Source: a virus (Duplodnaviria; Caudoviricetes). From it: a stretch of 42,231 bases of DNA. Where the stretch lies: the IMG/VR virus record IMGVR_UViG_3300032053_004601, positions 1 through 42,231 of that record. One strand, 5' to 3'. Below are positions 7,254 through 32,225 of this stretch, one piece after another. Position 1 is the first letter of the stretch. Each line of letters opens with the position of its first letter. The notes under the pieces are model-generated. The model ran no database searches, was not told the origin of the DNA, and saw only the letters and a list, made by a program, of their open reading frames with translations. The position numbers and the translations under genes were made by a program.

Positions 7254-7265
7254 TAGAATTCTCCT

Positions 7266-14331: not shown

Positions 14332-15534
14332 TTAACTTTGTGTGAGGGTAACGGTTGCCAGTCCGTCCTTGATAAGCGTACCATACGCGAATCGAGTCAT
14401 CAGACCCTTTCTAGGCGTGAAGTCGTTGGTATCCACAATCTTCGGAGTCACATAGAGAGGAATGTAGGGTGAGTAGAAACCAACAGAGTCTGTCCAAGTA
14501 TTTCCCTTATATCCCATGAGGAGCTTGTTCGTGACAGGGAAGAACGGGTCTTTGTAAACCCGGTATCTGTCATTGAGCGTCCCCGAGAGATGCCGACCAA
14601 TTGCAAATTCAGAAGGGTCGTTGGCAGGCGAGAACCGGAACTCTTCAAGCTTCTCAAGACGCACGATGGTATCGGGATGTCCGATAATCCAATTGGCGTA
14701 GCGATATCTCTTCTTGTAAATGAGGTTCGATGCATCCACAACGGCTTCGTAAAGAGTCCGCTTGTAATCCTTCAGGAAAGTCGTGGAAGTATCGCCAGCC
14801 AGCTGACCGTTGATATTCCAGTTGACGTTTCCTGCGCCCGTGCCTGTTCCGTACCCAGAGCCGCCCGCTCCCGCGAGGAGAGCAGTGATAATAAGACCGT
14901 CAATTTCACGGACAATCTGTTCCTGCAGCACGGTCATGAGTTCAGTTTCGGCATTAAGACCATGGTAAGCCATGAGGTCTTGCTCCAACTCCACCGTCCA
15001 GATAGCCTTGAGCTTCTTTTCGATAGCCGTGACGGTCTCGTTGGTGATTTTCAGGTCGAGTTCCTGCACCGTCCCACTCTCAGTCGTAGTAGCATAATTG
15101 GGAGACCGGACTTCGGCTACGCTGTCATCAGCAGTAGCTTGGTCAAAGGTGTTGTGATACTGGAAGTCGAGATAAAAAATCTTAGCCGTAGGCTGTGCAA
15201 TCGGCTGAATGGAAACAAGGTCCATAGCCAAAAGCTTACTAAAGATTTTCCTAACGAGAGGCATGGCGATGGTCGTAAAGGTAAAGGACTGACCGGACGG
15301 AGTTGTCGTAGTCGTATCCTCCAACAGGTGCTTGGCCTGCTGCCTCAGGACTTTGGATATAATCCAGTCCTTGGATGAGGGGTCATTCGCCATTTTGAAC
15401 TTGTCAAAATCTTCCGTCAGGGCCGCGTAAGAGTTTGACAGAAACTTAACCGGGTCTTCAACCAACATCTTCACTTCCGGAGCGGCCTGCTGCCGGAGGT
15501 CGTACTGAGACTTCAGGTCTTCATAAATTTCCAT
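14332..15534 (-). CDS. major capsid protein, T4 gp23-like
   Basis: TVTAIEKKLKAIWTVELEQDLMAYHGLNAETEL, YSPYIPL and FTPRKGLMTRFA are gp23-family hallmarks. Confidence 0.93.
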   Translation of the reverse strand: MEIYEDLKSQYDLRQQAAPEVKMLVEDPVKFLSNSYAALTEDFDKFKMANDPSSKDWIISKVLRQQAKHLLEDTTTTTPSGQSFTFTTIAMPLVRKIFSKLLAMDLVSIQPIAQPTAKIFYLDFQYHNTFDQATADDSVAEVRSPNYATTTESGTVQELDLKITNETVTAIEKKLKAIWTVELEQDLMAYHGLNAETELMTVLQEQIVREIDGLIITALLAGAGGSGYGTGTGAGNVNWNINGQLAGDTSTTFLKDYKRTLYEAVVDASNLIYKKRYRYANWIIGHPDTIVRLEKLEEFRFSPANDPSEFAIGRHLSGTLNDRYRVYKDPFFPVTNKLLMGYKGNTWTDSVGFYSPYIPLYVTPKIVDTNDFTPRKGLMTRFAYGTLIKDGLATVTLTQS

Positions 15535-16247
15535 TACTTATCCTCCTTCTTAATTTTCATACCACCAAAGGACTGCATCTTCCTCTTAAAGTCCTCCGCA
15601 ATCGGGTCATTCCCGTCATTGGAAGGTTTAACCACCCCTTTGCCCTTGTCTTCAAGGATTTTAGATTCCTCACTGGCAAGGACTTTGGCGAAATCTTCGT
15701 CTTCTTTCAGATACTTAGCCACATCTTCCGGAGTCTTGATAATACCCGAATCCAGTTTCTCGACCAGACGGGTCTTAACCAAAGCTCCAAACTTCAACCC
15801 CTGCACACCTTCGTCAATAGAATTACGAAGTTCCTGCTTGAGCTTTTCCTCGGCAACCTTGGCTGCCTGTTCCTTCTGAGCATCCAAAACGGCTGTCTGG
15901 TCAGTGATTGTTTTCTCTAAAAGAGTGACCTTGTCAATCAGAGCCTGCCGTTCCTCGTCCGCCACCTTTGCCGCCTTGGGATTTTCCTTAACGATGTACT
16001 CTTCAAGATATCCGCTAGAGCTAAGGATATCAACAATTCCCTCAAGGACAGAAAGGTGCTTTTCCATCTCCTTGTCCTTCGTGTTCAGCTCGGCTTCCAA
16101 CTGAGAGACACGCCCAAGGTTCTCCTTGAGTTTAGCATCCGCCTCTGTAACCTTAGGCTCAAATTCTTTGGAGAACTCAGCCTTCAGTTCGTCTATAATC
16201 TGAGGATGCTTTTCTTTCAGCAAAGCCAGAGTTAGTTCTTCAGACAT
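15534..16247 (-). CDS. putative nested scaffold protein (internal in-frame start)
   Basis: AGGAGG at 16258-16253, then 5 nt, then ATG at 16247 at the protease/coiled-coil boundary. Confidence 0.6.
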   Translation of the reverse strand: MSEELTLALLKEKHPQIIDELKAEFSKEFEPKVTEADAKLKENLGRVSQLEAELNTKDKEMEKHLSVLEGIVDILSSSGYLEEYIVKENPKAAKVADEERQALIDKVTLLEKTITDQTAVLDAQKEQAAKVAEEKLKQELRNSIDEGVQGLKFGALVKTRLVEKLDSGIIKTPEDVAKYLKEDEDFAKVLASEESKILEDKGKGVVKPSNDGNDPIAEDFKRKMQSFGGMKIKKEDK

Positions 16248-16817
16248 TGCTTCCTCCTGTATGACTTTTTCATTTGCGTCCGCCTGTTCTATGATTTTGT
16301 GAATCTGAGCGGACTGAACAGACGGGTCAATCACAAAATCAACACTCTCCAACTTATAACCCTTTTCAATCTCCTCCAATTCCTCTCCGTTGACAGTAAC
16401 TTTCTTACTGTTACCAGCCCCACGCGAGGAAAATCCCGGCCTTCCACCAGCTCTCAAAATTTCCTTCAAAACAAGACCTGCCGGGGTATTAAGAATAAGA
16501 CATTCACCAAGAATACGGCTAGGTTGAAACTCGTCCCACCAGAGCTTTGTGACCATATGGGACGTTTCCTTCAGTCTCCCTCGCACCTCAGGATGGTCAA
16601 CCTCTCCGAATACACGGTTTTCTTGAAGACGGTCTTTCAGACCAGCAAGTGCTTCCTCAAGGACTTCCTTCTTGTAGATTCTTTTGTTCCGATTGGGAAT
16701 GTCGGCTTCCTGTACAACACCAGTAACCTTCATTCTTTTTTCGGTCTGTCCCTCGACAGCGTCCTCTACAATCCTGAGGTTGCTCCAAGTTGTTTCAACT
16801 AAAAGTTTTTCGGGCAT
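15534..16817 (-). CDS. prohead protease (T4 gp21-like) fused to scaffold/core domain
   Basis: NRNKRIY, FGEVDHP, GFSSRGAG, DFVIDPS, then an acidic coiled coil; probable start MPEKLL at 16817. Confidence 0.9.
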   Translation of the reverse strand: MPEKLLVETTWSNLRIVEDAVEGQTEKRMKVTGVVQEADIPNRNKRIYKKEVLEEALAGLKDRLQENRVFGEVDHPEVRGRLKETSHMVTKLWWDEFQPSRILGECLILNTPAGLVLKEILRAGGRPGFSSRGAGNSKKVTVNGEELEEIEKGYKLESVDFVIDPSVQSAQIHKIIEQADANEKVIQEEAMSEELTLALLKEKHPQIIDELKAEFSKEFEPKVTEADAKLKENLGRVSQLEAELNTKDKEMEKHLSVLEGIVDILSSSGYLEEYIVKENPKAAKVADEERQALIDKVTLLEKTITDQTAVLDAQKEQAAKVAEEKLKQELRNSIDEGVQGLKFGALVKTRLVEKLDSGIIKTPEDVAKYLKEDEDFAKVLASEESKILEDKGKGVVKPSNDGNDPIAEDFKRKMQSFGGMKIKKEDK

Positions 16818-16834
16818 TCTATGCTCCATGTATG

Positions 16835-16866
16835 ACTTTATCCATAGTTTGTAACATGTCAAGTAT
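16835..16866 (-). promoter_or_regulatory. putative promoter upstream of protease/capsid
   Basis: TTGACA-N16-TAAAGT; context resembles the portal-upstream sequence. Confidence 0.4.
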
Positions 16867-17922: not shown

Positions 17923-18194
17923 GATGTACCTCCTATTTGGTATGGTAAAGTAGCGTAAACCCTTCTCCCATCCAAGATTTGGGGAAGAGCATCAAAGAAC
18001 TCTTTTGGATTAGCCGTACTGTAAGACTTTCTCTGGTATACAATTCCGTCATCCAATATTTCTTTAGCAAACCCGTTAGTATCTTTCAAAATAATAATAT
18101 TGGTCCCATCAAATCCAAACGTAGCTATGATATCAACATCATCATCGTCTCTGTGTGGAAAGACAACATCAATTCCAAGCATCTTTAACCTCAT
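17919..18194 (-). CDS. small protein downstream of kinase 2, candidate immunity protein
   Basis: ATGA-coupled to the kinase; resembles 19230..19523. Confidence 0.5.
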   Translation of the reverse strand: MRLKMLGIDVVFPHRDDDDVDIIATFGFDGTNIIILKDTNGFAKEILDDGIVYQRKSYSTANPKEFFDALPQILDGRRVYATLPYQIGGTS

Positions 18195-19228
18195 TCATAC
18201 TTCATAACAAATTTATTATTGCTTTTGTCGATTATTTCTCTAGCCTTCGTATCCCAAAGTCCGGGGTTTCCGGGAAATTTATCCATGGTATTTAAAATCT
18301 TTGCTCTGGTAAAAGAGTTTTCCACATGTCGTATAAGTTCTGGAGGAGACCCTATTTTTTGAGCCATAGCCATGATATCTTTCTCTCTACTGACATACCT
18401 TTCAAGCGCGGCATGAATTTTTGGAGAGATAGGTTGGTTTCCAGATTTACTTTCCGCATGCGTCATATAGTAAAAATCATGAGAAAACGAAAGATTATTA
18501 TCTATGGCAATTACTTTTTTAGTAGACTCGTTTATCAAATAGTTATTCATATGTCTATCACTATTCGCTATAACTATATCCAACGCCATCATTTCGTCCC
18601 ATGACTCTTGCTCAGCCCCGTTCTTACCTGTTTGTACCATACCTACCGGAGTCCCCTTCTCATCCCATCTCTGCCAAGAACCGATACCAAAGTGGTTCTC
18701 CTGAATACGATTTAGTTCATCATCTCCTTCTCCAGCTTGCACAGCTTCAATCCCGGCCTGATATCCCATCTTTATTTCTTCAATGGTCGGACCCTCTCTT
18801 ATTATCGTCTCCGGAACGATATCAAACCCCATTGCTCTGCTTATAGCATAACTCAAAGCATCGCGCATCATGGATGACCCTTTATCCCCACCACCTAACG
18901 CATGCTCTTCCGGTTTATAGGCATAGGTTCTTTCTTCCCCATCCGGACCCCTAAGAACCGTCTTCCACGTTTTGCTAATGCCCTGTTTTCCATTCAGTTT
19001 AATATTGATAATATTACCGTTTAAAATAAAGTCTGCTTTGGCTTGGTCCACAAGAGGTCTAGTTCCTAAAATATCTTTGGGAATCTTTAAACTATTGGCT
19101 ATTCTTCCCTTATCATTACCCCTAGCAGAATTAGGCGGCCTTCCAGAGCCGGGACCACCATTTTTACCCGGAGGACCACCCTCAATGAATCTCTTAGAGA
19201 ATTCTTGAACTACCCTGTAATATCCCAT
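18191..19228 (-). CDS. PI3/4-kinase/HipA-like kinase 2 with FIE|GG leader
   Basis: YKP, GFDIVPET, GSWQRW, DIVIANSDRHMNNYL, AIDNNLSF. Confidence 0.8.
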   Translation of the reverse strand: MGYYRVVQEFSKRFIEGGPPGKNGGPGSGRPPNSARGNDKGRIANSLKIPKDILGTRPLVDQAKADFILNGNIINIKLNGKQGISKTWKTVLRGPDGEERTYAYKPEEHALGGGDKGSSMMRDALSYAISRAMGFDIVPETIIREGPTIEEIKMGYQAGIEAVQAGEGDDELNRIQENHFGIGSWQRWDEKGTPVGMVQTGKNGAEQESWDEMMALDIVIANSDRHMNNYLINESTKKVIAIDNNLSFSHDFYYMTHAESKSGNQPISPKIHAALERYVSREKDIMAMAQKIGSPPELIRHVENSFTRAKILNTMDKFPGNPGLWDTKAREIIDKSNNKFVMKYE

Positions 19229-19229
19229 C

Positions 19230-19523
19230 TCAGTCCTCTATTGATTCCTCATAAGGAGCATTCGACCACGACCTGCTGCCATGGTATTCAAAGGGTATAA
19301 GCTTGATAAACCGTAATCCCTCAGAAGAGAAAACAATATCTCTTGTCTTTTCATCCAAAAGAGGCTCCGCCAGCCGTTTTGTAGCAACAGCCAACGGAAA
19401 GTCTTCCGATGTTTTAATTTCAAACGCAGGCCCGCCAGAAAGGTCCGCACCAATGGCGTAGATGGGTGATTTTCCATCTTCCCACTCTGAGTTAAATATA
19501 TCTACCCGTAACACTTGTCTCAT
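19230..19523 (-). CDS. small protein downstream of kinase 1, candidate immunity protein
   Basis: Abuts the kinase stop codon; EGLRFIKLIPFEYHGSRSWS resembles KEFFDALPQILDGRRVYA in 17919..18194. Confidence 0.5.
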   Translation of the reverse strand: MRQVLRVDIFNSEWEDGKSPIYAIGADLSGGPAFEIKTSEDFPLAVATKRLAEPLLDEKTRDIVFSSEGLRFIKLIPFEYHGSRSWSNAPYEESIED

Positions 19524-20570
19524 TTACCCTCTCCCCAGCACATGCGGCACAGCAGCTCGGTTGTTCCGTATAAAAGTTCCACTATTACCCATATAATACT
19601 GAGTTCTCGGTAAAAACTTACCACTAGTCTTCAGTGCTTCCGCCCGAGTAAATATATCCTCTACTCCACGCATATCTGCTGCGCTCATTTTCAATTTTTT
19701 TGCAGCTTTAAATACTTTTTCCTTACCCGCTAAAAGTTTATTAATAGAATTTATAGATGACTCAGATAAAGGCTTCTCTTCGGGATTAAGTTTAAAATCG
19801 TCAAAAACACTAATTCTAATATATGGACTACCTGTCCGCTGAGGAATACAAAGTCCATTATCTATGGCATGAAGCTTACCATTTTCTTCATCAATCATAA
19901 TATTATTTCCATGCCTGTCCGAATTACCTGTGATTGTATCAAGTAGAAAAAGTTTTTCTACTTGGTCCACATGAGACTCAGCAAACCTAGATTGCATCCT
20001 GTCAAATGCCCCGGCCCCATTATTTCTATCCTCCACCTCTCCGTTTATTCCCTTTATCCACCGTTGCGCAGAACCTATTCCCTTCTCTGGATGAACAAAT
20101 AAATCCGTATCTGGAACTAGTCCAAGCCCCATCGTTCTATCAATAACACAAGCCAAAATCTCTCTTTTATAAAAAGTACCCTTTTCTACAAAATTTCTCA
20201 ACTTTTCACCCCGAGGGATTATTAGATTTCCTTGTCTATCCCTACCCATACATTCTCCGTTCTTTGGTTTGAAGCAAGTTTTTAATTCCTCATCCCCAAA
20301 TTTCATATACAGTTTGAACGAAAGGCTCGTAGCGCGGGTATCAGAATTAGGTTCTGTCCTTGACACCTCTCTAGAAATAAGGACATCCTGAAGATTGCTT
20401 CTATCTTCAGGAGCGGAAATAGTAGGATTCTGTTCCCTCGGTATTCTTCCCATATCATGTCCATACCTACTACCTACGGTTCTTCCTGAACCGGGTCCGC
20501 CTTCTAAAATATCCAAAACACCACGATTGAATCGCAGGCGTAAGATGTCGTAGCTCAATTTATTTATCAC
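19524..20570 (-). CDS. PI3/4-kinase/HipA-like kinase 1 with ILE|GGPGSG leader
   Basis: FKPKNGE, REILA, GLVPDT, GSAQRW, DTITGNSDRHGNNIMI, AIDNGL. Confidence 0.82.
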   Translation of the reverse strand: MINKLSYDILRLRFNRGVLDILEGGPGSGRTVGSRYGHDMGRIPREQNPTISAPEDRSNLQDVLISREVSRTEPNSDTRATSLSFKLYMKFGDEELKTCFKPKNGECMGRDRQGNLIIPRGEKLRNFVEKGTFYKREILACVIDRTMGLGLVPDTDLFVHPEKGIGSAQRWIKGINGEVEDRNNGAGAFDRMQSRFAESHVDQVEKLFLLDTITGNSDRHGNNIMIDEENGKLHAIDNGLCIPQRTGSPYIRISVFDDFKLNPEEKPLSESSINSINKLLAGKEKVFKAAKKLKMSAADMRGVEDIFTRAEALKTSGKFLPRTQYYMGNSGTFIRNNRAAVPHVLGRG

Positions 20571-20697
20571 TCTTTTTTAAAAGAATAGTAATGACAGAAT
20601 CATCATCAGTAGGAAATTCGTCTATTTCCGGCAACATGTCAAGCCACACAGAAAACTCATCGTCTGTTTCGATATCAGGTTCTATATTTTCTCTCAT
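20560..20697 (-). CDS. 45-aa acidic peptide (not in ORF track)
   Basis: Hand translation MRENIEPDIETDDEFSVWLDMLPEIDEFPTDDDSVITILLKKSDK; fills the gap exactly. Confidence 0.55.
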   Translation of the reverse strand: MRENIEPDIETDDEFSVWLDMLPEIDEFPTDDDSVITILLKKSDK

Positions 20698-20698
20698 T

Positions 20699-21085
20699 TT
20701 ATTTTGTAAATAAATGTATAAGCCCCAAAATTACCCCGAGTATGGAAATACCAGAAACGAACCAGAGTTGCCCCTGTGAAGCCTTGCCTTGGTGGCTGGA
20801 CCGAAAGTCTCGGCTTTCCCGCAACTCGTCATCATACACCTTGTGAGAAAGAATTGCTTCCGCCCGTGTGAAATAATTCTTAGATTGGTCGCTCATGGCT
20901 TGTCGAAACTCATTCATAGAAGATAAACGAGCATTCATTACCTCATCGCTCTTAGCCATTTCAGCACACAGTGCGTCAAAACGGGAATCAACGTAATCTC
21001 GCAATGTAACCCAGTCTGCCCTGTGCATAACCCCATCTTTTCCTTGTGCCAATTTACCCATTAATCTTCCCACAAGTAAAAACAT
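20699..21085 (-). CDS. coiled-coil protein with C-terminal TM segment
   Basis: VTLRDYVDSRF...MNEFR...; hydrophobic C-terminus; start uncertain. Confidence 0.55.
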   Translation of the reverse strand: MFLLVGRLMGKLAQGKDGVMHRADWVTLRDYVDSRFDALCAEMAKSDEVMNARLSSMNEFRQAMSDQSKNYFTRAEAILSHKVYDDELRESRDFRSSHQGKASQGQLWFVSGISILGVILGLIHLFTK

Positions 21086-21808
21086 TCATTTTCTATCTCC
21101 TTTTATAAAAAAATCATAGGTGAACGGTCCATCCTCCTTTGTCATGACAATCGGCTTTATCATAATATCTTTTCGTTGAACCTTAATTCCTTTTTGGTTA
21201 AGAAGGTCATGAACTCCGTTAATACCCTCAAGGATTTTCCTATCCTCGTTACCGAACTGAGGAACGGACGCTATAAAGAACGATACTTTTCCACTCCTCT
21301 TGAACCAAGTCATCCCCATTTCTTTAGAAGACAAAAAGTCAACGATGTCTTTTTTAAGCTGTGGAGTTACCTTATCTTCTATTGTAAAATGAGTCATCGG
21401 ACTGGCCTCCGAACCTGTAGCCGCAGTCAGCATCAGGACAGCGTCTTGGTCGTTATCCTTGGCAGTCTGAGCTATCATCGCCCTAGCCTTGCCATTACCC
21501 TTATAAGAGACAACCCATGTCGGCTCCACCCCCCCATATATGCCAGACCCAAAACTAACCTTCGCATCCCTCACACCGGGTATGGCTATGAGGATTTTCT
21601 CAAACTCCTGCATCTTCCTATAGACTTCGTGGGTAGACCCGCCAGCTCGGTAACTCGTTATTCCCACCCTTATTTCAGGCTCGGTTGAACCACTACCGCC
21701 GCCCGAAGTGTACTGGTTTCCCCTGAAAGGATGCCCCGGATTCTCACCCGAATTGGCATTACCCTCAGTGATTTTCCTAAATCTGGGTTTAACAATAACG
21801 TATGTCAT
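21086..21808 (-). CDS. tagged cargo protein, possible SAM-lyase-like domain
   Basis: ITE|GNANSGENPGHPFRGNQYT leader, then GIYGGVEPTW...DQDAVL. Confidence 0.45.
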   Translation of the reverse strand: MTYVIVKPRFRKITEGNANSGENPGHPFRGNQYTSGGGSGSTEPEIRVGITSYRAGGSTHEVYRKMQEFEKILIAIPGVRDAKVSFGSGIYGGVEPTWVVSYKGNGKARAMIAQTAKDNDQDAVLMLTAATGSEASPMTHFTIEDKVTPQLKKDIVDFLSSKEMGMTWFKRSGKVSFFIASVPQFGNEDRKILEGINGVHDLLNQKGIKVQRKDIMIKPIVMTKEDGPFTYDFFIKGDRK

Positions 21809-23085
21809 CTCCCCTCCGCCATCAAAACAGACCCCTCAGGAGTGCGAAAGACAACTCCGTCATTCCTCTGAAGCCAGAAACCCCCTCTTTCTACTCTCTC
21901 TACAACCCCCACCCGAACAAGAACTCCATCTAGTTCCCAAACAGTCGCCCCAACAGGAATTGTGGCTGCAGATATCCCAAACTCCATCATGGCAGCTGGC
22001 CTGATGAGCTGCATTCCGTTATTGACCAGAGTCATTGCGTTACTGACGATATTCTCGACTGCAAATCTCGGGACCGCCCTGTATCCCGTAGCATTCATGA
22101 GGTTTATAATCTGGTCGTTCAGTACCTTCCTCTGAGTTATAAAAAATTCCTGTTCTACTCCCGCAGTAATAGCAATCTTAGCCCGAGAAGCATTCATCTG
22201 GCTAAACAAATCATCAAACAAGTCTGCCACGTTCCCGGTCACGGGCGCACCCTCGGCTGTCGTAACGAATGCAGCAAGCCTGTCCAGCCCCGTTATTATC
22301 TCCGGAGACAACGCAACACCACCAGAGCCGTCTGTGTCCTGCATGTCTTCCCGAACATAAACAAGCCTGCACAAGCAATTGAAAAGACACTCCGTATCCC
22401 CTGATTTTGGGACCGTGGGAAGAGTTTCTTTTGTATATGGAGAATTTGCTGCAATATCAAGACAATCCGAACAGTGGTCCCCAATAGGATGTCCTAGTTC
22501 CCAGTGAATCAAAACCCCATCCCAGTCCTGACCTCCAGCAACGTATCCGTTCCAGAACTGTGCCTCAAGAGAATCCGCATAATCCTCGGCGCGGGCCTCC
22601 GCTCCCTTAAGAGACTCATGATTCCCTATCTGCCCAAAGGCATTCTTTGCATACCGGGATTCCTGCCTTAGAGCAATGTTAGAGAATCGCTCATCCGGCT
22701 CCGTCATTCCCTGTGACTGATAAAATGGATTCCCAGAATGCATGGCCCCAGCATTAAACGCCTGCTTGTAAAAGTCAGGACCGAACTCCTTGAACTCCGA
22801 AAGAGCATCCGCAGGCGATATAACCCCTGCGTCTATTCTTCCAGTCAAGTCCTTCAGCCGCGTAGCAAACTCATCCTTAATATCACTAAACGCCGCCAGA
22901 CCCTGCCTAGCGGCCCCACGGTCAAACCCCCCGATAGACCCCAATGCCTGACTCCATATACCCCTCTCAGTCTCCGCCTTCCACCCACCACCAAAGAGGA
23001 ACTTGCGGCCCTCGGTAAGCCAGAACTTATCAATCTCCTCTGTCAGGACCATCGAGTTACCGGGGATTTTCCTAATCAATCCCAA
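21805..23085 (-). CDS. MuF/SPP1 gp7-like head morphogenesis protein
   Basis: HWELG...DHCSDC...PKSGDTECLFNCLCRL Cys pattern; head module location. Confidence 0.7.
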   Translation of the reverse strand: MGLIRKIPGNSMVLTEEIDKFWLTEGRKFLFGGGWKAETERGIWSQALGSIGGFDRGAARQGLAAFSDIKDEFATRLKDLTGRIDAGVISPADALSEFKEFGPDFYKQAFNAGAMHSGNPFYQSQGMTEPDERFSNIALRQESRYAKNAFGQIGNHESLKGAEARAEDYADSLEAQFWNGYVAGGQDWDGVLIHWELGHPIGDHCSDCLDIAANSPYTKETLPTVPKSGDTECLFNCLCRLVYVREDMQDTDGSGGVALSPEIITGLDRLAAFVTTAEGAPVTGNVADLFDDLFSQMNASRAKIAITAGVEQEFFITQRKVLNDQIINLMNATGYRAVPRFAVENIVSNAMTLVNNGMQLIRPAAMMEFGISAATIPVGATVWELDGVLVRVGVVERVERGGFWLQRNDGVVFRTPEGSVLMAEGR

Positions 23086-23576
23086 CCTCCGGTTCTCATC
23101 TTTGAGACACGATTTAACACCCTATCCACCCTCCTTGCCTGACGAGACCACTGCCTAGCCCACTGGACAGTCGCTTTCTTTGCGGCTGGAGAGGCGGCAT
23201 TAGATGACCGAACTGCCAATATAGCATTCTTGGACCCCTCCTTCCTCCAATCCCTTTCTCCCTTGAGTATTTTTATCTGCTGTACCGTAGAAGGAGTGTT
23301 TTTAAGGGCATTTATAAGTTTATTCAATCTGTCTTTCGTAGTTTCTTTGGGAGGATATGTCCTCGTCTGATTATCGTCGGCCCGGTAAGGACTTTTAGCC
23401 TGAAATCGTCTAAGTTTTAACTTCCGGAGTATTCTATTAACTTCTCTTGGATTTTTTGTATTCTTAATATTCTTAGCCCAAGCTTTAGGCTGAGACAACC
23501 CGGACGGTCTTCTCCCCGAACCCGGACCACCCTCTACCAGAATAGTCTCAAAATCTTCGGGGAATACTTTTCTCAT
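23076..23576 (-). CDS. small basic tagged protein 6
   Basis: MRKVFPEDFETILVE|GGPGSGRRP; K/R-rich. Confidence 0.75.
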   Translation of the reverse strand: MRKVFPEDFETILVEGGPGSGRRPSGLSQPKAWAKNIKNTKNPREVNRILRKLKLRRFQAKSPYRADDNQTRTYPPKETTKDRLNKLINALKNTPSTVQQIKILKGERDWRKEGSKNAILAVRSSNAASPAAKKATVQWARQWSRQARRVDRVLNRVSKMRTGGWD

Positions 23577-23585
23577 TTGTGTCTC

Positions 23586-23849
23586 CTATGGCTTGCTATA
23601 TTTATCTATAGTTCTTTTCCAGCCAGAGGATGTGTCAAAAGACATCCTTACAAGCCTATTAAATCTATGCAGCGCATACTTTTTATTGTTAGAACGAACT
23701 CTATCTCCTACCTTCTTCCACACATCTCCATATCGTTTTTGCTGAGAAGGCCAATCAGCTTTCGCTCCCGCCCTTCCCGGTCTCCGTCCACTACCGGGGC
23801 CACCCTCAAGTAAGACTGTGGTGAATTCAGAAGCATTTACTTTTCGCAT
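23586..23849 (-). CDS. small basic tagged protein 5
   Basis: MRKVNASEFTTVLLE|GGPGSGRRP. Confidence 0.75.
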   Translation of the reverse strand: MRKVNASEFTTVLLEGGPGSGRRPGRAGAKADWPSQQKRYGDVWKKVGDRVRSNNKKYALHRFNRLVRMSFDTSSGWKRTIDKYSKP

Positions 23850-24271
23850 TTCTTCCTCCCAGCTAACTTGACCTTCTTATCTGCTCGGTCAGTCCAGTTT
23901 TTTATAAAAGGTTTGTCCGGCTTCCTATGGAGACCAAAATTCTTCATGACTGTTTCAGAATTTCTAGGTCTGGGCTTTTTTGCACCCTCTTGAAAGTTCT
24001 CCCAGTGGACCCTTCCGCCTTGACGATAACTTACCATTCCAACCGCTTTGTACGCAGCAGCTCTCCAATTTCTATTTCCTTTCGGAGCAATAAGTTTAGC
24101 CTTACCTATTTTCAATGCACCCTTGGCAATATCTTTCTCTCCCGCAGCCCGGAGTCTTCGGACCTTATGGGCCAGATAAGTTCTGGCTGTTGCCCCTCCG
24201 GGCCGTCTTCCAGAACCCGGACCACCTTCTACTAGAACAGTATTGAAATCTTCAACATTTACTTTTTTCAT
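23837..24271 (-). CDS. small basic tagged protein 4
   Basis: MKKVNVEDFNTVLVE|GGPGSGRRP. Confidence 0.75.
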   Translation of the reverse strand: MKKVNVEDFNTVLVEGGPGSGRRPGGATARTYLAHKVRRLRAAGEKDIAKGALKIGKAKLIAPKGNRNWRAAAYKAVGMVSYRQGGRVHWENFQEGAKKPRPRNSETVMKNFGLHRKPDKPFIKNWTDRADKKVKLAGRKKCEK

Positions 24272-24273
24272 AG

Positions 24274-24630
24274 TTAGTCTCCGTACATGGGTCCGTATTT
24301 TTTAGATTTAGCAGAGGCTGACATACTATACCTCTTGCTCCACGCCTTGCTCTTCATCTTCATTCCCTTCGATAATTTTTCGGCGTTTTTCTCCATCCAA
24401 CCAAGAGCCTTGATATATCTTTTTTCTCCAAGTTTTGTTTTGGCATTCCAAGATTTTGCTCTAATGACTACCTGACCAATGTCATCCCTCCTGTTGGCTA
24501 GGGAAATAAGTTTAGAAGCCGTCACTCCACTTGGCCCGACTCCCTTCCTTCCACCTCCCGGTCTACGCCCACTACCCGGACCACCCTCTAGTAAAATAGT
24601 CTTGAAATCAGACACATTTACTTTTTTCAT
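24274..24630 (-). CDS. small basic tagged protein 3
   Basis: MKKVNVSDFKTILLE|GGPGSGRRP. Confidence 0.75.
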   Translation of the reverse strand: MKKVNVSDFKTILLEGGPGSGRRPGGGRKGVGPSGVTASKLISLANRRDDIGQVVIRAKSWNAKTKLGEKRYIKALGWMEKNAEKLSKGMKMKSKAWSKRYSMSASAKSKKYGPMYGD

Positions 24631-24631
24631 A

Positions 24632-24886
24632 CTATCTCCTTTTTCCTTTTCTTAAATTACCCATGCCCAAAAACAAAGCCCGATTAGCCCGCTTTGCTAT
24701 AACCTTATTTATACCAGCCCTACTTCTAGGAGAAAAATAATCCCCACTAAAAAATCTTTCTTTACGAATAGCTTTGAGTTTATCAGCAAGATTTTTACGT
24801 GCGCCTGCATGTCCGGGCCTCGGACCACTACCGGGACCACCCTCAATAAAAACAGTAGTGAATTCAGATGCACTTACTTTTTTCAT
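24632..24886 (-). CDS. small basic tagged protein 2
   Basis: MKKVSASEFTTVFIE|GGPGSGPRP. Confidence 0.75.
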   Translation of the reverse strand: MKKVSASEFTTVFIEGGPGSGPRPGHAGARKNLADKLKAIRKERFFSGDYFSPRSRAGINKVIAKRANRALFLGMGNLRKGKRR

Positions 24887-24887
24887 A

Positions 24888-25193
24888 TTATTTTTCTTTC
24901 TTGGCCCACCTTGCCGCTTTCTGTTTTTCTACCTTATCCCAATTATACGGCTTCACAGATTTTGCATTCAATTTAGCAAGCAGCGAAATTGTAGGAATCT
25001 CTTTGATTGAAGGTATCCCTTTCCCTTTAGGGCTGCTTGTGGCCCACGGAGCAGCGGGCTTTGATTTTCTAGAGAACTTTGGATATACACGCTTACCCCC
25101 ACCCGGACCCCGTCCACCTCCCGGTCTCCTACCACTACCGGGACCACCTTCTACTAGAATAGTATTAAAATCTTTAGTATTTACTTTTTTCAT
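24888..25193 (-). CDS. small basic tagged protein 1
   Basis: MKKVNTKDFNTILVE|GGPGSGRRP. Confidence 0.75.
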   Translation of the reverse strand: MKKVNTKDFNTILVEGGPGSGRRPGGGRGPGGGKRVYPKFSRKSKPAAPWATSSPKGKGIPSIKEIPTISLLAKLNAKSVKPYNWDKVEKQKAARWAKKEK

Positions 25194-25977: not shown

Positions 25978-25978
25978 T

Positions 25979-26206
25979 TTATGTCTCCTTCTTAAAGTTC
26001 TTTCTATACTCTTCGGCTTCCGCCTCAGAAACTTCATGATAACTGTCTGCATCGCTTGCATACCCAGATACGGCATCAAGTGTGCTACTCGCAAATACCC
26101 ATTTTCCACTACTGTCCCATCTCTCGATAATTGGAGGAGAAACATCCATGTCCAATCGTCTCAACGACATATCCTTCTCCCCAATATAACGAATAAAATA
26201 TCTCAT
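25979..26206 (-). CDS. small acidic protein, candidate antitoxin of the RelA/SpoT domain
   Basis: ATGA-coupled to the upstream stop; ERWD...W...YHEVSEAEAEE. Confidence 0.55.
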   Translation of the reverse strand: MRYFIRYIGEKDMSLRRLDMDVSPPIIERWDSSGKWVFASSTLDAVSGYASDADSYHEVSEAEAEEYRKNFKKET

Positions 26207-27966
26207 GCCTTCCCCCAATTCTTAAACACTTCTCCCGCCCTCGCTGGAATCTTAAAATCTTTCCAGTTATCAATCATTTCTTTTTCCAAAGCTGCAATCT
26301 CAGCTGCATCTTTAGAAAGCCTTTGTCTTTCATAAATAGGGTGATTTTTCTCAGCTATGACAACAGACTCCTTCGTATGAAACTGAACTTCAAAAACATA
26401 TCCAGTAGTCGTATCTCTGAACTTAGTATTAATTCCTCCATATGAACCAAGCCTCTCAAAATAATTGCTTTTTTTAACAAGCTCATATCCCTGAGATACC
26501 ATTGTTTTTCCCATATTTTCACACGCGTCATAAAAAGTTTCTTCTGGGGCAATGGTTGTATATCTGACTACATCCTTTATTTCCTTAGCCGCATCATCTA
26601 GTGTAAGAACCCTATCCGGTTCTTCTTCCTTCATCTTCTGTAATTTTCTAGCTATCGACGCTTCTGTCTTTAACCGAGTATCAAACCGATTAAATATAGT
26701 CCCATCCGGACGAGTTATAAAACTACTAAGAGTAGTCCCCGAAGAAGCCGCTGAAAAAAGCATGTTAGCAGAAATAGCAGGTTCTACCGCAGCTCCAGCA
26801 GCATACATTACTTTGGCTAGCTTCAGCCTGTTCTCGTAATCAAATGTCTTTTCCCCGGTTCCCTTCGTGGCATCCTTAGGACTATCCCCACCACCCCCGT
26901 CTCTGGGCGCACTCCCACCCACCTGTCCGGGCCTTCCCGCATGGTCATAATTACCAGACTTCTCATTACCTTCCATCCATATTTTCCTAATGCCATGATG
27001 CTTACTCTTGCCAATCAGGAACCAGTACTTGGGACTCAGTAGTTCTCTAAGAGATTCGTTCTTTTTCTTCCCCACAACTTTAAGAACCAAACGCCCATCA
27101 CTCCCCAAGTTCACAACTTTAAAGCTCAATCCCCTCGGAAGAATAAACTCTCCCTCCCGAAGATAATTTCCTTCTGTGACATTTCCAACATGGGGATTAA
27201 ATTTAAATCCCTGTTTCCCTCCTAAAAATGTGTCAACGGGAAGTATATTTGTACCCTTTGGAACGAGTATTTTTATTTGATGATTATTGAATCCTTTGGC
27301 AAAAGTTAAAGAAGAAGAAGCTGACACATAACCAGCATCAGTAAAAATATCTCCTAATTTAATTTTAAACAACTTAGCCCATGTTCTATCTCCAATACCC
27401 CGGAAAAGAGTAAGATTTTCTTTCAGGCTAAATTTTTCTATAGCAGAATCAATATTTGGTATGGCTGTAGTCGCCAATTTTAATCTGTAGTCTACCGAAG
27501 GGCCACTCTGACCGGACAAAAAAGTTGGGTCTCTAAGATATTTATTTATTGTTACAGAATCAGAGATAGTATACTCACTTACCGACACAGTTTCCTCAGG
27601 TGTAATTGTAAATGGGTCAGGAAGATTTAATAGTTCCAACTGTTTATTTATAAATGGACCTATGTCTAAGCCCAAAGGCATCTTATCATCTATTACCGTA
27701 TAGTCTTTCTCGTTGTCTCCAGTACCTCCACCTGCCGTGTACTGATTTCCCCTAAAAGGATGTCCCTCTGGTTCTCCTGAATTAGCATTACCTTCTTCGT
27801 CCGTATCTTCTTCAAGCTCAAGCGGGTCAAACCCCAACATTCCAACAACATCTTCTGGAGTAACATCCATTTCCTCATCATCTGGGTCCGGGTCTTCAAC
27901 CTCCCACCAGTTGACTTCTACCTCTTCAACATCGCCTATGTGGACATCATAATCAAGTTCGCTCAT
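26203..27966 (-). CDS. polyprotein: acidic leader | ADP-ribosyltransferase | RelA/SpoT-like nucleotidyltransferase
   Basis: ART: INKYLR, LFRG, GYVSASS, REGEFILPRG. RSH: RLKTEASIARK, KDVVRYT, YGGIN, FEVQFHT. Start MSELDY at 27966. Confidence 0.85.
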   Translation of the reverse strand: MSELDYDVHIGDVEEVEVNWWEVEDPDPDDEEMDVTPEDVVGMLGFDPLELEEDTDEEGNANSGEPEGHPFRGNQYTAGGGTGDNEKDYTVIDDKMPLGLDIGPFINKQLELLNLPDPFTITPEETVSVSEYTISDSVTINKYLRDPTFLSGQSGPSVDYRLKLATTAIPNIDSAIEKFSLKENLTLFRGIGDRTWAKLFKIKLGDIFTDAGYVSASSSLTFAKGFNNHQIKILVPKGTNILPVDTFLGGKQGFKFNPHVGNVTEGNYLREGEFILPRGLSFKVVNLGSDGRLVLKVVGKKKNESLRELLSPKYWFLIGKSKHHGIRKIWMEGNEKSGNYDHAGRPGQVGGSAPRDGGGGDSPKDATKGTGEKTFDYENRLKLAKVMYAAGAAVEPAISANMLFSAASSGTTLSSFITRPDGTIFNRFDTRLKTEASIARKLQKMKEEEPDRVLTLDDAAKEIKDVVRYTTIAPEETFYDACENMGKTMVSQGYELVKKSNYFERLGSYGGINTKFRDTTTGYVFEVQFHTKESVVIAEKNHPIYERQRLSKDAAEIAALEKEMIDNWKDFKIPARAGEVFKNWGKA

Positions 27967-29774
27967 GCTAATCCCTTTCTCCACACTGCAAAAATAGTTG
28001 GAGATATATACGCCTGTAGCGCAACCGTAGGGGTGTTACCGAGTCTTGCAGCAACGTGTTTGGCAACCTCCCTGACTGCTTTTTTATACAACTTCATAGT
28101 CTTAGGAACTTGAATTTTTTCCATAAACTTCTTTGCCAAAGTTGTACCCATCAGAGTCCGGAAATCTTTAGTAGTAAACTTCCTGCCATTAAGCGTGTGA
28201 ACAAATCTGTTAAGTTTACCACTGTCTATGCTAAACAGCTTGCCATCCTCTCCAGCGGTGATTTTCCTACCAAGCAAAGTCTTCGCAATGTCTTTATCCT
28301 CAATGAGGACATCCTGCGCAACCCCCTTCTTACCGATAAACTGGAGCCGGACCTCTTCTCCAACCTGTACAACATGCCGCCCCTCAAGAGTCGTGGCCCC
28401 GTAAGACTTGACCTTGGCTACAATCTCCTCATCCGAACCGGGCCGAAGACCCGTCTTCATGATAAGATTCGACACAACCGCCGCTTCCCTAGTATCCGCG
28501 TCCCGACTGCGCATTTTCCTGCCTATTTCCTTCTCAATTCCTGCCTGTTTAACTTCCAAGGACTTTATTCGGGCAAACTTCTCTCTAGCCTGCCCCTTCT
28601 TGAACTTCTCACTGTACAGATACTGGTCCCGGCCCGCAGCGTCCTTACCTACAACCAACAACTCCCCCTTGGGGTCCGGGTTAAATCTAACTCCCGTCCA
28701 CGCGGGCGGTATGCGGATTTTCCTAATGTGCTTTGGCAGGTTCTCTTTGTCTTTAGCATCAACGAATCCCTTGGCTACCCCCCCGCCTGCGGGCGAGTCC
28801 CCGCGAGTGTCAAGATTCGTCGCTCCTGATTCTCTCCCAGTATCCTTTCCAGTGCCTGAACCGGGAGTCCGACCAGAACCATCTCCGCCTTCAGCTAAAG
28901 ACTCACCGACCTTGGCTTTCCTGTTCTGGTCTACTACTTTTACACGAAGAAATAGTACGTTCTGTCCATCCACTTTCCTATCTTTAAGTCCGCCAACAAC
29001 TTCATACTTAGTTCCCCGGTCCAGCACAAATTCAGTTTCCCAGAAGGCTAAAGCATTTTGAGAATTTTTAGATGGATTGTATTTGTTAGCCCTATAAATA
29101 TCTGGATTGAATGCCTTCGTTCCCTTAGGGGCAAGTATTTCCAACATAAAATATGAATGCTGTGAAAAATCAATAGCTGTACGCGGAGAAATAGAAGTAG
29201 AACTATATCCCATATCTCTATATGTCGTTCCAGCTCCCTTTTCACGAAGAGCTTTAAACAAACCCTCCTTTACCCCCCGGTAAAGGACAGTTGGTTTCTG
29301 TAAACTTTGCTTATCAAGAATCTTATCCATATCTTCTATAGTTTTAAAGGCAATGGGGTCAATTGGCGCACCATATCTATCTTTCTCCAGTTCAGGATGA
29401 CGAAGATGATAATTAATAAGATTATAATAACCACCCTGATATGAAGTTGCGGCTAAAGCAGACTCTTCTCCCGGAACGGATATCGGACCATGTGCAGAAA
29501 GTATATATTTTTCTACAGAAGAACTCATCTCTCGGGTCATATGAAACATGTCCATATTTCCAGACTCTCCCGGAAATCTCTCATACCCTGCATCCGAATC
29601 CTTAGGAAGACTACCACCCTGATGCCCCTGAATTCCAAGATGGTTGTAATTACCAGACCCAGCACTACCCTCCGCAACCCCGACTGTTTCCTCTTTGGAC
29701 GTAACAACAGGTTCAACCAGCTCGATGTCTCCGGAGTTCCAACCAAACTTATCTATATTAATCATTATGTCCAT
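27963..29774 (-). CDS. polyprotein: leader | ADP-ribosyltransferase | DNA topoisomerase IB
   Basis: ART: INYHLR, LYRG, GYSSTS, WETEFVLDRG. Topo IB: IPPAW, GRDQYLY, GLRPG, FIGKKG, KDFRT, LGNTPTVALQAY. Start at 29774 or 29765. Confidence 0.88.
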   Translation of the reverse strand: MDIMINIDKFGWNSGDIELVEPVVTSKEETVGVAEGSAGSGNYNHLGIQGHQGGSLPKDSDAGYERFPGESGNMDMFHMTREMSSSVEKYILSAHGPISVPGEESALAATSYQGGYYNLINYHLRHPELEKDRYGAPIDPIAFKTIEDMDKILDKQSLQKPTVLYRGVKEGLFKALREKGAGTTYRDMGYSSTSISPRTAIDFSQHSYFMLEILAPKGTKAFNPDIYRANKYNPSKNSQNALAFWETEFVLDRGTKYEVVGGLKDRKVDGQNVLFLRVKVVDQNRKAKVGESLAEGGDGSGRTPGSGTGKDTGRESGATNLDTRGDSPAGGGVAKGFVDAKDKENLPKHIRKIRIPPAWTGVRFNPDPKGELLVVGKDAAGRDQYLYSEKFKKGQAREKFARIKSLEVKQAGIEKEIGRKMRSRDADTREAAVVSNLIMKTGLRPGSDEEIVAKVKSYGATTLEGRHVVQVGEEVRLQFIGKKGVAQDVLIEDKDIAKTLLGRKITAGEDGKLFSIDSGKLNRFVHTLNGRKFTTKDFRTLMGTTLAKKFMEKIQVPKTMKLYKKAVREVAKHVAARLGNTPTVALQAYISPTIFAVWRKGLA

Positions 29775-30519
29775 TCCCCCGGCTAAGAACACGAAGGACT
29801 GCCGTTTTTTCATAAACCGATTCGACTACAAATTTAATTCCTCTATTCAAACATACTTCATTCTCTTCATCCTCATCTATTTTTCCAATCTCCGGGACAG
29901 ATATAGCCGGAGTTCCCTTCGGAACATAAATCTTAACGGAATAGGAAGGACTAGAACCTTCCCTTTGTATATTACGAAAATGGTCTCCTACTATCTTCTG
30001 CGACGAACACGACACAAAACCTTTATCTATAAATGTCTGTCCGACTTTAAGTTCCATACCTCCGACACCACGATATAAAACAGTATCTTTTGTAGTAAAA
30101 CTTTTTTTCATAACTGAATCCATAACAGGAATCAACTTATCAGCTATTATTTGCGTCCATTTATTATCTTTAAAATCTTCTGGATGGGTTCCTCTAAGGC
30201 TATTATTAACCATCGCATGCCCATCAGAAACATACTCTTTAACCAACTCTAATTCTGATTCTAATATATTTTTTGACTCCGCCAAACCGATAGTCCACTT
30301 TGTAGCCTCACGAACTTTAGCTCTGTCATCCCAATTAGTAATCTGTGGAGATTCGGATTCTGCATTCTCAGCTCCAGTACTGCCACCTACTGTATATTGA
30401 TTTCCTCGGAAAGGATGACCTTCTGGTTCTCCCGAGCCTTCTCCGCCCTCAATAACAAGTTTTTTCTTCCCTTTTTTACCGGGAATCCATTTTGGGGACA
30501 AAAAACCAACAAGTTCCAT
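29758..30519 (-). CDS. ADP-ribosyltransferase (VIP2/Alt-like) with VIE|GGEGSG leader
   Basis: VNNSLRG, LYRG, GFVSCS, EENEVCLNRG. Confidence 0.85.
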   Translation of the reverse strand: MELVGFLSPKWIPGKKGKKKLVIEGGEGSGEPEGHPFRGNQYTVGGSTGAENAESESPQITNWDDRAKVREATKWTIGLAESKNILESELELVKEYVSDGHAMVNNSLRGTHPEDFKDNKWTQIIADKLIPVMDSVMKKSFTTKDTVLYRGVGGMELKVGQTFIDKGFVSCSSQKIVGDHFRNIQREGSSPSYSVKIYVPKGTPAISVPEIGKIDEDEENEVCLNRGIKFVVESVYEKTAVLRVLSRGNGHND

Positions 30520-32225
30520 CAGTAAAGCTCCCGCCTCTTCCCTCTAAGTATTTTCTTAATAGCATCTTCGGTTCGCATAACAAGTCTACGCATATTAGGG
30601 TCAGCTAAGACCTTTCTACGAATCTCATCCAACTCAGAAGGAGTCGCCGTGCGAAGACGAGCGGCTGTCCGGGCGGTGATTTTCCTAAATCCCTCCTCCG
30701 GAGGAGGCTCGGGCTGCCCGTCAGCCGACTGTCCCTGTGACTGGTCCTGTTGCATGCTCAACTGCATAGCCATTTGCTGCATCTGCATCTCTTGGTCCTT
30801 TGCCGCAGCTTCTTCTTCCGCATCTTTTATCATCTGTAAAAGCTCTTCGGCCTCTGCAGGTGACAAATTCATGAACATTGTGCGTATAATCCAGTCTGTC
30901 GGCAGGTTTATCCCCATATTTCTGTAGACACTTAGCAAATTGGCCTTTAAGTTCTCTATATTCCACTTAGATTCCTCATCCGGAGTGCCTATCTCAGGAA
31001 ACCTGATTCTCCAATTGAAAGAATTAGGGTTCACCCCCGCCATAATCCAACTTATCTTGTAGATTTTCCTTAACCCCTCTGCTAAAGCATACCTATGTCT
31101 CTTAATCATCTTGACAAAAGCCACGTTCTGCTGGTACAGAGTCGCCTTTGAATTCACATCCCGCTCAAACCCCAAGTACGCCTTGGGAACCTTCGTTCCA
31201 GAGAACAATTTGTTATGAAAGTGTTCGACATCCCGTATTTCACCAAGGTGAGTTACCCCACCAATCATCTGATAGTCGCCTCCGGGCGCATCCTTTCGCA
31301 CGGGTATGTAAATATCTTCCATAGGAATCAGCGGGTCTTTCTCTGTCTTTAGTTTTCCCTCGGCTGAAAAATACCAACGCTTCTGATTCATAAGTCTGAT
31401 TTTATTAATGTGCTTGGCAGCCTCTTTTTCTCCCATCCCCGTAACGTCAATCTTCCAAACTCCCTTTCTATTCGCTTGGGCTATTCTAGTAACAACAAGT
31501 GTATCCTCAAGCATACGCTCGACCCTGTAAGCCCTGCGAAGTTTTGAGAACAAGGAGAAATTAACCCCGTAATCATTATCCCCAATCTTGAAATGAGCAA
31601 TTTCCCACGGGTCGAACTCCGCAACCACGCGAGAAATTGTATCGTCCTTTTGTATATACGGTTTTTCAGTATTGATAGAACCGTCTTTCAGATAATTGCA
31701 GAAGACCTGCTTCGGAGGAAGAAATTTAAGCTTGGTTATCGTCTCCGGAGTGCATACTATCTCGTAAAAGGCATCTCCATAGAGAAGCATGTTCCTAGTA
31801 ATAAACCAAATCTTCTCTTTGAGTTGGAGGTCTTCCTCCATTGCTTCGATTATATCAGACGCTTTTTCCTGCCCCTTTTTAGGAGTCTTTTTAACGTCCT
31901 GTTGTGTCTCATCATCAAAAATAACAGAGTACGAATCCGTAAGGTCAGTCGCAGACGAAACTACAAAGTCCGCATGGACATCAAGAGCCGACGAGAGTTC
32001 GACAATTTCCGTGTCCATCTCTTCATAGTCAACATACTTCTTTAATCTGTCATCTGATATTTCAAAAACAGAACCCTGTGACCAATCAAGCTTCGGCCTC
32101 TCTGTCGTTATATCGTCCTGAGCTACCTGTGTCGGTTCTGTCTTACGAAATACATTCTGAATCCGTTTTATTAAACTTTGTCTTTCCGGTTGTCTTTCAT
32201 CGGATACAAGAAAATTATCTGGCAT
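30519..32225 (-). CDS. portal protein, T4 gp20-like
   Basis: YEEMD, YGDAF, MLEDTLVVTRIAQ...WKIDV, EDIYIP, LGEIRDVEHFHNKLFSGTKVPKAYL. Confidence 0.9.
   Translation of the reverse strand: MPDNFLVSDERQPERQSLIKRIQNVFRKTEPTQVAQDDITTERPKLDWSQGSVFEISDDRLKKYVDYEEMDTEIVELSSALDVHADFVVSSATDLTDSYSVIFDDETQQDVKKTPKKGQEKASDIIEAMEEDLQLKEKIWFITRNMLLYGDAFYEIVCTPETITKLKFLPPKQVFCNYLKDGSINTEKPYIQKDDTISRVVAEFDPWEIAHFKIGDNDYGVNFSLFSKLRRAYRVERMLEDTLVVTRIAQANRKGVWKIDVTGMGEKEAAKHINKIRLMNQKRWYFSAEGKLKTEKDPLIPMEDIYIPVRKDAPGGDYQMIGGVTHLGEIRDVEHFHNKLFSGTKVPKAYLGFERDVNSKATLYQQNVAFVKMIKRHRYALAEGLRKIYKISWIMAGVNPNSFNWRIRFPEIGTPDEESKWNIENLKANLLSVYRNMGINLPTDWIIRTMFMNLSPAEAEELLQMIKDAEEEAAAKDQEMQMQQMAMQLSMQQDQSQGQSADGQPEPPPEEGFRKITARTAARLRTATPSELDEIRRKVLADPNMRRLVMRTEDAIKKILRGKRRELY

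Follow-up and report, generated by a model that had tools for sequence, protein, structure and literature searches.

The window analysed here (42,231 nucleotides, IMG/VR record IMGVR_UViG_3300032053_004601) is a 42-kb fragment of an uncultured phage, estimated to be about 32% complete, whose late genes are all on the minus strand. Two of its open reading frames (ORFs), here named A and B, lie between the genes for the portal and the prohead protease, and both encode modules with intact catalytic motifs, a short Gly-rich tag standing at every module start; the motif found there has two parts, the residue ahead of the tag and the tag itself. We propose that A and B are strings of tagged modules, which would be packed into the prohead, cut after Glu by the gp21-type protease of the phage and injected as separate enzymes, a reading that rests on sequence comparison and to which we assign a probability of about two in three (0.68). 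On the comparative evidence, the tag system as a whole is real and well supported.

A six-frame search of the window for the core Gly-x-x-x-Ser-Gly returned 15 matches, 14 of which follow a Glu (7.8% of residues in the window) and are all located between portal and protease, the fifteenth belonging to a run of Gly residues (38345) that lies outside the head genes. The pattern was written without the Glu, but after the tags of the window had been read, and the count therefore only describes the window, the independent test being offered by other phages. The third residue counted back from the junction (P3, the Glu being P1) is hydrophobic at 13 of the 14 tags against a background of 34%, and strictly Ile or Leu at 8 of the 14 sites; A295 and B308 (ORF and residue number of the Glu) comply with the stricter rule. 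A preliminary description of this DNA had reported a second E/G motif (the slash marks the proposed cut) between the enzyme domains of both ORFs. Both copies are present, at Glu codons 28892 (SLAE/GGDGSG, residue 295 of A) and 26973 (IWME/GNEKSG, residue 332 of B), within one base of where they had been placed, and a second site, ESLRE/ at the end of the ADP-ribosyltransferase (ART) domain of B (Glu codon 27045), had been overlooked.

With regard to the modules, ORF A (database protein P0001) is matched in Pfam by ART (PF03496) and topoisomerase IB (TopIB; PF21338/PF01028). An AlphaFold2 run covering its residues 1-345 gave a confident ART at 61-282, the last strand ending at 282, and coil with a predicted local distance difference test score (pLDDT) below 50 at residues 22-59 and 295-345, the TopIB match starting only at 349. 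The latter extends over residues 349-598 of the comparison with the bacterial type IB topoisomerase (2F4Q/3M4A, presumably from Deinococcus radiodurans; E 4e-28 for 2F4Q) and keeps the R-K-R-H/N-Y set as R444, K482, R539, N580 and Y589, residues which we take to be catalytic. All three ARTs of the window, including a stand-alone tagged one, retain the Arg, S-x-S and E-x-E of the R-S-E (VIP2/Alt-type) enzymes at a pairwise identity of only 30-33%, and the fold predicted for the ART of A is likewise of this type. In ORF B (P0070) the ART is again recognized by PF03496, has no confident model and was given its end near residue 298 by alignment; a synthetase fold is predicted confidently at about 372-575, and residues 300-362 are coil with a pLDDT below 50. 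Structure prediction, which the preliminary description had proposed as a check of the domain boundaries, places both internal tags in low-confidence coil, outside the predicted folds. The stand-alone ART ends naturally a few residues past the same last strand, and cuts at ESLAE (A295) and ESLRE (B308) would therefore leave ART C-termini of similar length. Both joints are spanned by a second assembly (99.98% identity over 26821-31739) and by a Logan contig from run X8 (26802-29468, no differences), which may stem from the same sampling campaign and therefore rule out misassembly, nothing more.

Table 1. Features of the head-gene module and of ORFs A and B (positions in the window; a slash marks a proposed cut; aa, amino acids).
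Feature	Position	Strand	Remarks
Terminase	33796-35973	-	
T4 gp20-type portal	30519..32225	-	PF07230, E 6e-44
Cargo array		-	between portal and protease
Stand-alone tagged ART	29758..30519	-	LVIE24/ then GGEGSGEPEGHPFRGNQY
ORF A	27963..29774	-	603 aa from ATG at 29774; leader, tag-ART, tag-topoisomerase IB
ORF A first site	29610..29672	-	Glu35 then tag GSAGSGNYNHLG..GHQGGS
ART domain of A	28929..29594	-	residues 61-282; Arg166-Ser192-Glu246/Glu248; VIP2/C3 fold
ORF A internal site	28860..28892	-	ESLAE295/ then tag GGDGSGRTPG
Topoisomerase IB, bacterial/poxviral type	27966..28730	-	residues 349-603
ORF B	26203..27966	-	587 aa; acidic TopIB partner, tag-ART, basic spacer, tag-Apk2-type synthetase
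Acidic 58-residue module	27793..27966	-	26 Asp/Glu, no Lys/Arg
ORF B first site	27739..27795	-	Glu58 then tag GNANSGEPEGHPFRGNQY; same tag in the stand-alone ART and ORF 21086-21808
ART domain of B	27073..27606	-	about residues 121-298; R-S-ExE intact
ESLRE308/ site and 24-residue basic spacer to IWME332/	26971..27045	-	
ORF B internal tag	26911..26970	-	GNEKSGNYDHAGRPGQVGGS
Alarmone synthetase, Apk2/Tas1/SaEAS type	26242..26853	-	residues 372-575; motifs RLK..S..RK, D..RYT, YxGxN, EVQFHT
75-aa ORF overlapping the stop of B	25979..26206	-	IapK-like immunity candidate
Six small basic proteins	23076..25193	-	each with a 15-residue leader ending hydrophobic-x-Glu/GGPGSG
Three further tagged cargo genes	18191..21808	-	240-aa unknown and two PI3/4-kinase/HipA-like kinases, a 91-97-aa ORF behind each kinase
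gp21-type (S77) prohead protease-scaffold	15534..16862	-	conserved His, Ser, Asp present
gp23-type major capsid protein	14332..15534	-	LLE72/ site

Outside the window, about a third of IMG/VR was searched at the DNA level for GSGN[FY]xHxGRPG, with no condition set on the residue before it, which recovered 162 stretches distributed over 114 contigs; 49 of these held at least two tags and, after removal of four for shared upstream context, 45 contigs with 157 tags were compared. Of 284 pairs of tags within a contig, 252 shared the residue ahead of the tag (shuffle mean 0.25, maximum 0.37 in 2000); it was uniform in 38 of the 45 contigs, being Lys, Asp, Leu, Asn, Glu, Phe or Ala depending on the contig, and agreement within contigs at P2, P3, P4 and P6 was 14, 24, 22 and 9%. 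What had been described as a single E/G motif is split by these data into a phage-specific pre-cut residue and a Gly-rich tag common to phages with different head proteases. The interpretation given in the preliminary description is upheld in part; its core, that the internal copies are processing sites, has comparative support: internal tags follow the majority residue of their own contig in 65 of 69 cases, N-terminal tags in 45 of 48.

Head proteins were surveyed in 49 of 50 records, picked from the 114 by class and length. Strong matches to DUF2213 occurred in 12 of 13 Asp-type records and in none of the 36 others, weak ones in six of nine Leu/Ala-type records and in one His/Asn record; S78 or S78_2 was found in 5/11 Lys-type records, in the single Arg-type record (1/1) and in 0/37 others. 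HK97-type proteases cut after Lys. The gp21 family, S77, was met in 0/44 non-Glu records and in 5 of 18 records picked for Glu, four times together with gp23 and the fifth time weakly, through a profile whose members were those four plus the window. When loci were chosen by S77 alone, one of 79 was tagged, all four of its tags (4/4) following Glu. The residue ahead of the tag appears from these comparisons to track the head-protein family, which fits a cut site: a switch at one position that follows the head machinery, the tag downstream remaining unchanged, is what is expected of a cut site beside a separate address tag. PF03420 had no match in the 49 records, five Glu-type ones included (the positive control worked), nor had phrog_207 in those five. 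Four loci with Glu-type tags (L162, L169, L171 and L176) carry Phage_capsid_4/Mu gpT-like capsids and head proteins of 470-640 aa. For five candidate head proteins of Glu-type phages, four without an S77 match, Pfam names no protease; the 470-640-aa proteins are candidates for a further Glu-cutting protease clade. Tag-like sites within the head proteins were considered as well, each pattern being densest in its own class, and were not used as evidence, the patterns being post hoc and the classes numbering 2-9 proteins.

In the window itself, the protease-scaffold matches the structure of T4 gp21 (PDB 5JBL, E 2e-14), with His, Ser and Asp as in its relatives, so that a Glu-cutting family resides within the same module as the 14/14 Glu-preceded tags of the head region, in support of the proposed processing. 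The LLE72/ site of the capsid protein stands just ahead of the conserved core and recurs at the same position in 4/4 related capsid proteins (a hydrophobic-x-Glu site in 5/5 relatives, counting the window), and the proteases start with such a site too. T4 gp21 cuts after I/L-x-E (PMC12991175), and giant-phage proteases related to it likewise cut after Glu (PMC5694885).

The constancy of the tag could also be explained if it were recognized and bound by a protein of the head (the portal, the scaffold or the capsid wall) and present once per module for loading or ordered ejection, with the residue ahead of it reflecting the binding partner and not a cut. Such a site would remain on the mature protein, and its conservation across phages with different proteases would be accounted for; its presence in only 1/79 S77 loci means that it is not needed for S77 cutting, and other, unrelated tags fill the same slot. 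The sharp switch of a single residue with free neighbours, together with the association of Glu with S77, is however better explained by protease specificity, and we regard binding without cutting as quite improbable. As regards the tag itself, binding and the proposed processing are compatible.

The preliminary description had also supposed that a whole tagged gene was fused on. This is supported for TopIB, where the G+C content at third codon positions (GC3) is 0.30 before the tag and jumps to 0.52 there (p 1e-7), and not for the RelA/SpoT homologue (RSH) module of B (0.28 vs 0.35, p 0.13). The likeness it had noted between the linker of B and the leader of the stand-alone ART proved weak: 901 of 5000 shuffles reached the local alignment score and 32 of 5000 that of an end-anchored global alignment chosen after the local result. 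As a copy of that leader the linker was set aside, its local score being not significant, other window proteins scoring higher and no DNA similarity being present, so that it remains a weak hint only; the pattern LSPK[YW] followed by a tag occurred in no other fetched protein. Relatives with the domains as separate tagged genes, which it had suggested looking for, were found for both the TopIB (P0002, P0050) and the synthetase modules. Among 151 RSH-domain matches, 16 were solo with a tag, 16 fused with a tag and 96 tagless by the patterns used, and a tag-like motif stood just upstream of TopIB in 46/67 matches compared with 6/191 control stretches inside domains. In L179, a locus that has a portal of the T4 type together with S77 and gp23, this TopIB also comes after a tag, LVE/GNAQSGNYGH, and is fused to a homologue of the window ORF 21805-23085, which from its Cys motif we presume to be MuF-like (a Pfam search gave it no match). 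ESMRE or SLRE is found directly ahead of tags in L184 also. A homologue search with the stand-alone ART gave one match, itself, and short RSH relatives gave three; the tag alone, a short and low-complexity query, had no match among cultured phages, and for a five-tag protein only the enzyme domains were matched among the best 25 of 194 matches. In P0071, P0074, P0088 and P0145, chains of 4-9 ART domains are split by other tags (H..HDQKSHGNW, FNxxQPR, FNENHDExGRF), with a constant residue before each.

These relatives bear on the main rival explanation, according to which the internal tags remain from genes that fused recently; the protease would then remove no more than the N-terminal leader, and each chain would enter the head and later the host intact, as a polyvalent protein carrying two enzymes. 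The GC3 step at the tag of A indicates modules of different origin, stand-alone tagged relatives exist, and a fusion within a phage would carry along the pre-tag residue of that phage; moreover, the virion RNA polymerase of N4 is packaged uncut (PMC5512222), and the cuts of SPN3US are N-terminal, except for the self-cleavage of the protease (PMC10052503). Against this stand internal tags as strict as the N-terminal ones in the counts above, also in chains with up to six tags, the same RSH module whose internal tags follow Glu, Asn, Lys or Arg in different proteins, and another Leu-x-Glu site exactly at the ART end of B. We consider the fusion-remnant explanation unlikely.

A number of observations weigh against the separation of A and B into single enzymes. 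The strict Ile or Leu at P3 is missing at 6 of 14 sites, B332 (IWME) having Trp and B58 Asp, and a bare Glu-Gly is unspecific, occurring four times in A and five in B and in part inside catalytic domains (VTE/GN at B265, TLE/G at A464). The low linker pLDDT is partly due to alignment rows lacking there. S77 was not found in 13 of 18 Glu-type records, four of which are at least 90% complete, and four of the five S77-positive ones were used to build the second profile; only one of the 79 other S77 loci has the tag, and the tallies of residue and protease are not independent because related phages inherit both. A profile comparison of DUF2213 with S77 gave no match and the solved DUF2213 member 9B40 was deposited as a scaffolding protein, for which reasons the protease role of DUF2213 is unproven. 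Finally, the cuts identified in SPN3US, bar the self-cleavage, all yield N-terminal propeptides, and about 80% of its head proteins are uncut (PMC10052503).

The description of ORF B as a two-domain protein was incomplete, as it left out a third, acidic module at its start and, likewise, an immunity-like gene behind it. A profile of the acidic module built from seven relatives, the window being left out, finds the window copy at E 9e-16. Of the 79 IMG/VR loci with TopIB that were fetched, 11 were duplicates and 3 too short; among the 65 distinct ones that remained, 62 (two of them seeds) have the module no more than 1.2 kb downstream of TopIB. Among 342 fetched loci that lack TopIB, a set with many short or redundant members, none has it. 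As an ORF of its own the module occurs in 42 loci, and in 23 it forms the start of a longer ORF, with a tag-like motif soon after in 14 of these. In GTDB it was found behind 7/7 phage-type TopIB genes, and it was absent behind the cellular-type TopIB copy L449 and behind top1E of Bacteroides phage BS162P1. It belongs to no Pfam family and had no Atlas neighbour above 0.78. As the dedicated acidic partner of a basic, DNA-clamping enzyme, the 58-residue module is likely an inhibitor of TopIB. The TopIB of the window differs from the bacterial enzyme in belonging to a phage clade whose genes lie in the head region, whose proteins bear a tag or are fused to portal, MuF or ART, and behind which this partner stands.

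The C-terminal domain of B, previously labelled RelA/SpoT, does have a RelA/SpoT-like fold beside the ART, and the label itself needs correction. The domain is missed by Pfam and matched by phrog_7625, by the XopAD C-terminus and by PDB 8VX3 (E 2e-15); the closest folds are 8VX3 (SaEAS, template modelling score 0.80 by target) and 6OX6 (Tas1), and it is about 30% identical to Streptococcus phage head-morphogenesis proteins. RYT, GxN and YH are signatures of Apk-type synthetases (PMC12226406), and B carries RYT at 468-470, GxN at 511-513 and FH, not YH, at 529-530. Judged by these motifs and matches, the domain is of the toxic Apk2/Tas1 type. A small ORF lies behind it in 37 of 53 distinct related loci, and a profile of these small ORFs ranks the 75-aa ORF of the window first of 492 frames (E 3e-7; next 0.58), the profile having excluded the window protein although its members were picked with the help of it. 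With a weak lead to Tis1_ImmP in addition, the 75-aa ORF is likely the immunity gene of the synthetase, an IapK-like candidate; immunity genes of the IapK type are known behind Apk2 (PMC5576092, PMC12226406). In four loci (L209, L210, L215 and L234) a synthetase immunity-like domain opens the next, longer ORF, directly followed by a tag in L215, and the inhibitor as leader therefore recurs.

An inhibitor-like module behind each enzyme could also be expected if these genes served as toxin-antitoxin or superinfection-exclusion modules, foreign to the virion despite their place in the head region, with the motif as a recombination or linker sequence. Nevertheless, the tags are conserved at the protein level, homologous modules are elsewhere fused to portal and MuF (PF06381, PF06074, PF05136, PF04233), and neither module-swapped variants nor joints at tags were present in contigs of four runs, coverage being patchy in three, and an origin outside the virion is thus very improbable.

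Returning to the proposed processing in the prohead, the sequence of events would begin with late translation of A and B together with the head genes, during which the acidic leader of B would hold TopIB off and the 75-aa protein would hold the synthetase off in the producing cell, a step that for TopIB we favour slightly. The chains would then be loaded into the prohead, the address being the leader, the Gly-rich tag or both, and cuts would follow at A35, A295, B58, B308 and B332, the short peptides being lost from the head. This would yield separate proteins of 27-34 kDa, namely both ARTs, the topoisomerase IB and the alarmone synthetase of Apk2 type. Upon ejection these may ADP-ribosylate host proteins, synthesize (p)ppApp-type nucleotides, by which adenine nucleotides would be drained or a signal given, and relax the incoming genome. 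Cutting at the five sites is probable in our estimate, and loading, ejection and action of the enzymes seem equally so.

Among known systems, the internal proteins IPI-III and Alt of T4, from which a capsid-targeting sequence is removed by gp21, are close: they share with the window the T4-type portal, gp21-type protease, gp23-type capsid and hydrophobic-x-Glu sites, short leaders on small basic proteins and an ART, probably packaged as Alt is (PMC5694885, PMC12991175, PMC9503650). In the window, unlike T4, sites lie also between enzyme domains, a conserved Gly-rich tag common to phages with other head proteases follows the site, and a module of 58 residues that goes with the upstream enzyme serves as one of the leaders; where T4 has a single propeptide of 10-20 residues, A starts with a leader of 35 residues and B with one of 58, both having internal sites in addition, and only the neighbouring cargo genes comply with the T4 scheme. 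Polyvalent proteins (Iyer et al., 2017; PMC5512222) also join unrelated effectors, ART and RelA/SpoT among them, in one late-gene chain for which injection and processing into units were proposed, but there processing was assigned to a built-in metallopeptidase, a common though not universal hub. In A and B no built-in peptidase was found, Pfam and PHROG matches covering ART, TopIB and RSH only; in the available part of PMC5512222, "topoisomerase" and "prohead" occur only in the reference list. The MuF toxins Apk2-IapK-Aph1 (PMC5576092, PMC12226406), Tas1/Apk1 (6OX6) and SaEAS (8VX3, PMC12691689) have in common with B the C-terminal synthetase with RYT and GxN and the small ORF behind, and differ in that the chains of the window lack a MuF Pfam match and have tag and ART instead, the phrog_7625 match covering only the C-terminal RSH part; compared with Apk2, B has FH where YH stands at syn4. 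An aph1-type HD hydrolase (PF13328) was not found in the 42-kb fragment, its completeness being as given above. The synthetase clade of SaEAS takes in XopAD and MuF fusions (PMC12691689), and MuF-VIP2 fusions have been described (PMC7302621). The chains of the window are not MuF toxins and would work like the internal proteins of T4 and like Alt, with the architecture of polyvalent proteins. In a literature search that did not extend to many subscription journals or to the supplementary files of PMC5512222, no account of the tag, the residue switch, the arrangement or the TopIB partner was found; neither was one of a topoisomerase IB that is carried in the virion and has a small inhibitor to itself.

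Other genes of the window deserve brief mention. The six tandem Lys/Arg-rich proteins have near-identical leaders and unrelated bodies, resemble T4 internal proteins or DNA-condensing cargo, and have no Pfam match and one weak PHROG match. The 91-97-aa ORFs after the two tagged kinases (18191-20570) may be immunity proteins, no relatives of them being found among the fetched loci; tagged kinases are present in L175 and L185 as well. An (R/K)-F-x-W-x-x-x-D-(I/F/V) motif, possibly an ART partner peptide, occurs on the minus strand in the leader of ORF A (29700-29760) and in ORF 25381-26145 (about 25930-25970), and in a few cases recurs just before or after ART domains elsewhere (P0084, P0088, P0118, L267). 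A 64-aa protein within the cargo array (25190-25384, minus strand) matches only the C-terminal Zn-ribbon/glycyl-radical end of NrdD, and near the terminase a QueD-like gene and a B12/radical SAM gene lie at 32285-32653 and 35903-37231 (minus strand). Between capsid and tail genes (6168-14231, minus strand), a glycosyltransferase block, which suggests virion glycosylation, is accompanied by sulfatase-like, radical SAM-like and cytidylyltransferase-like ORFs, the latter three recognized by eye.

More tentatively, many unrelated tailed phages may share a portable cargo grammar, in which an inhibitor of the upstream enzyme is followed by a protease-matched residue, a universal Gly-rich address tag and an enzyme. 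On this rather speculative view, taken as a whole, head maturation would amount to arming, with chains split, inhibitor peptides expelled and the packaged TopIB and toxins becoming active no earlier than in the completed virion; the acidic module would represent a new family of DNA-mimic topoisomerase IB inhibitors, and the pre-tag residue would reveal the cut specificity of unstudied head proteases, e.g., DUF2213 (Asp). Provided that cutting does take place at the sites, effectors that phages inject could be found and delimited in raw genomes by a short sequence rule, even where a domain belongs to no known family, and the same rule would predict the specificity of head proteases. Prohead proteolysis would then extend from the removal of leaders to the splitting of multi-enzyme cargo, which would also answer how polyvalent proteins without a built-in peptidase become separated.

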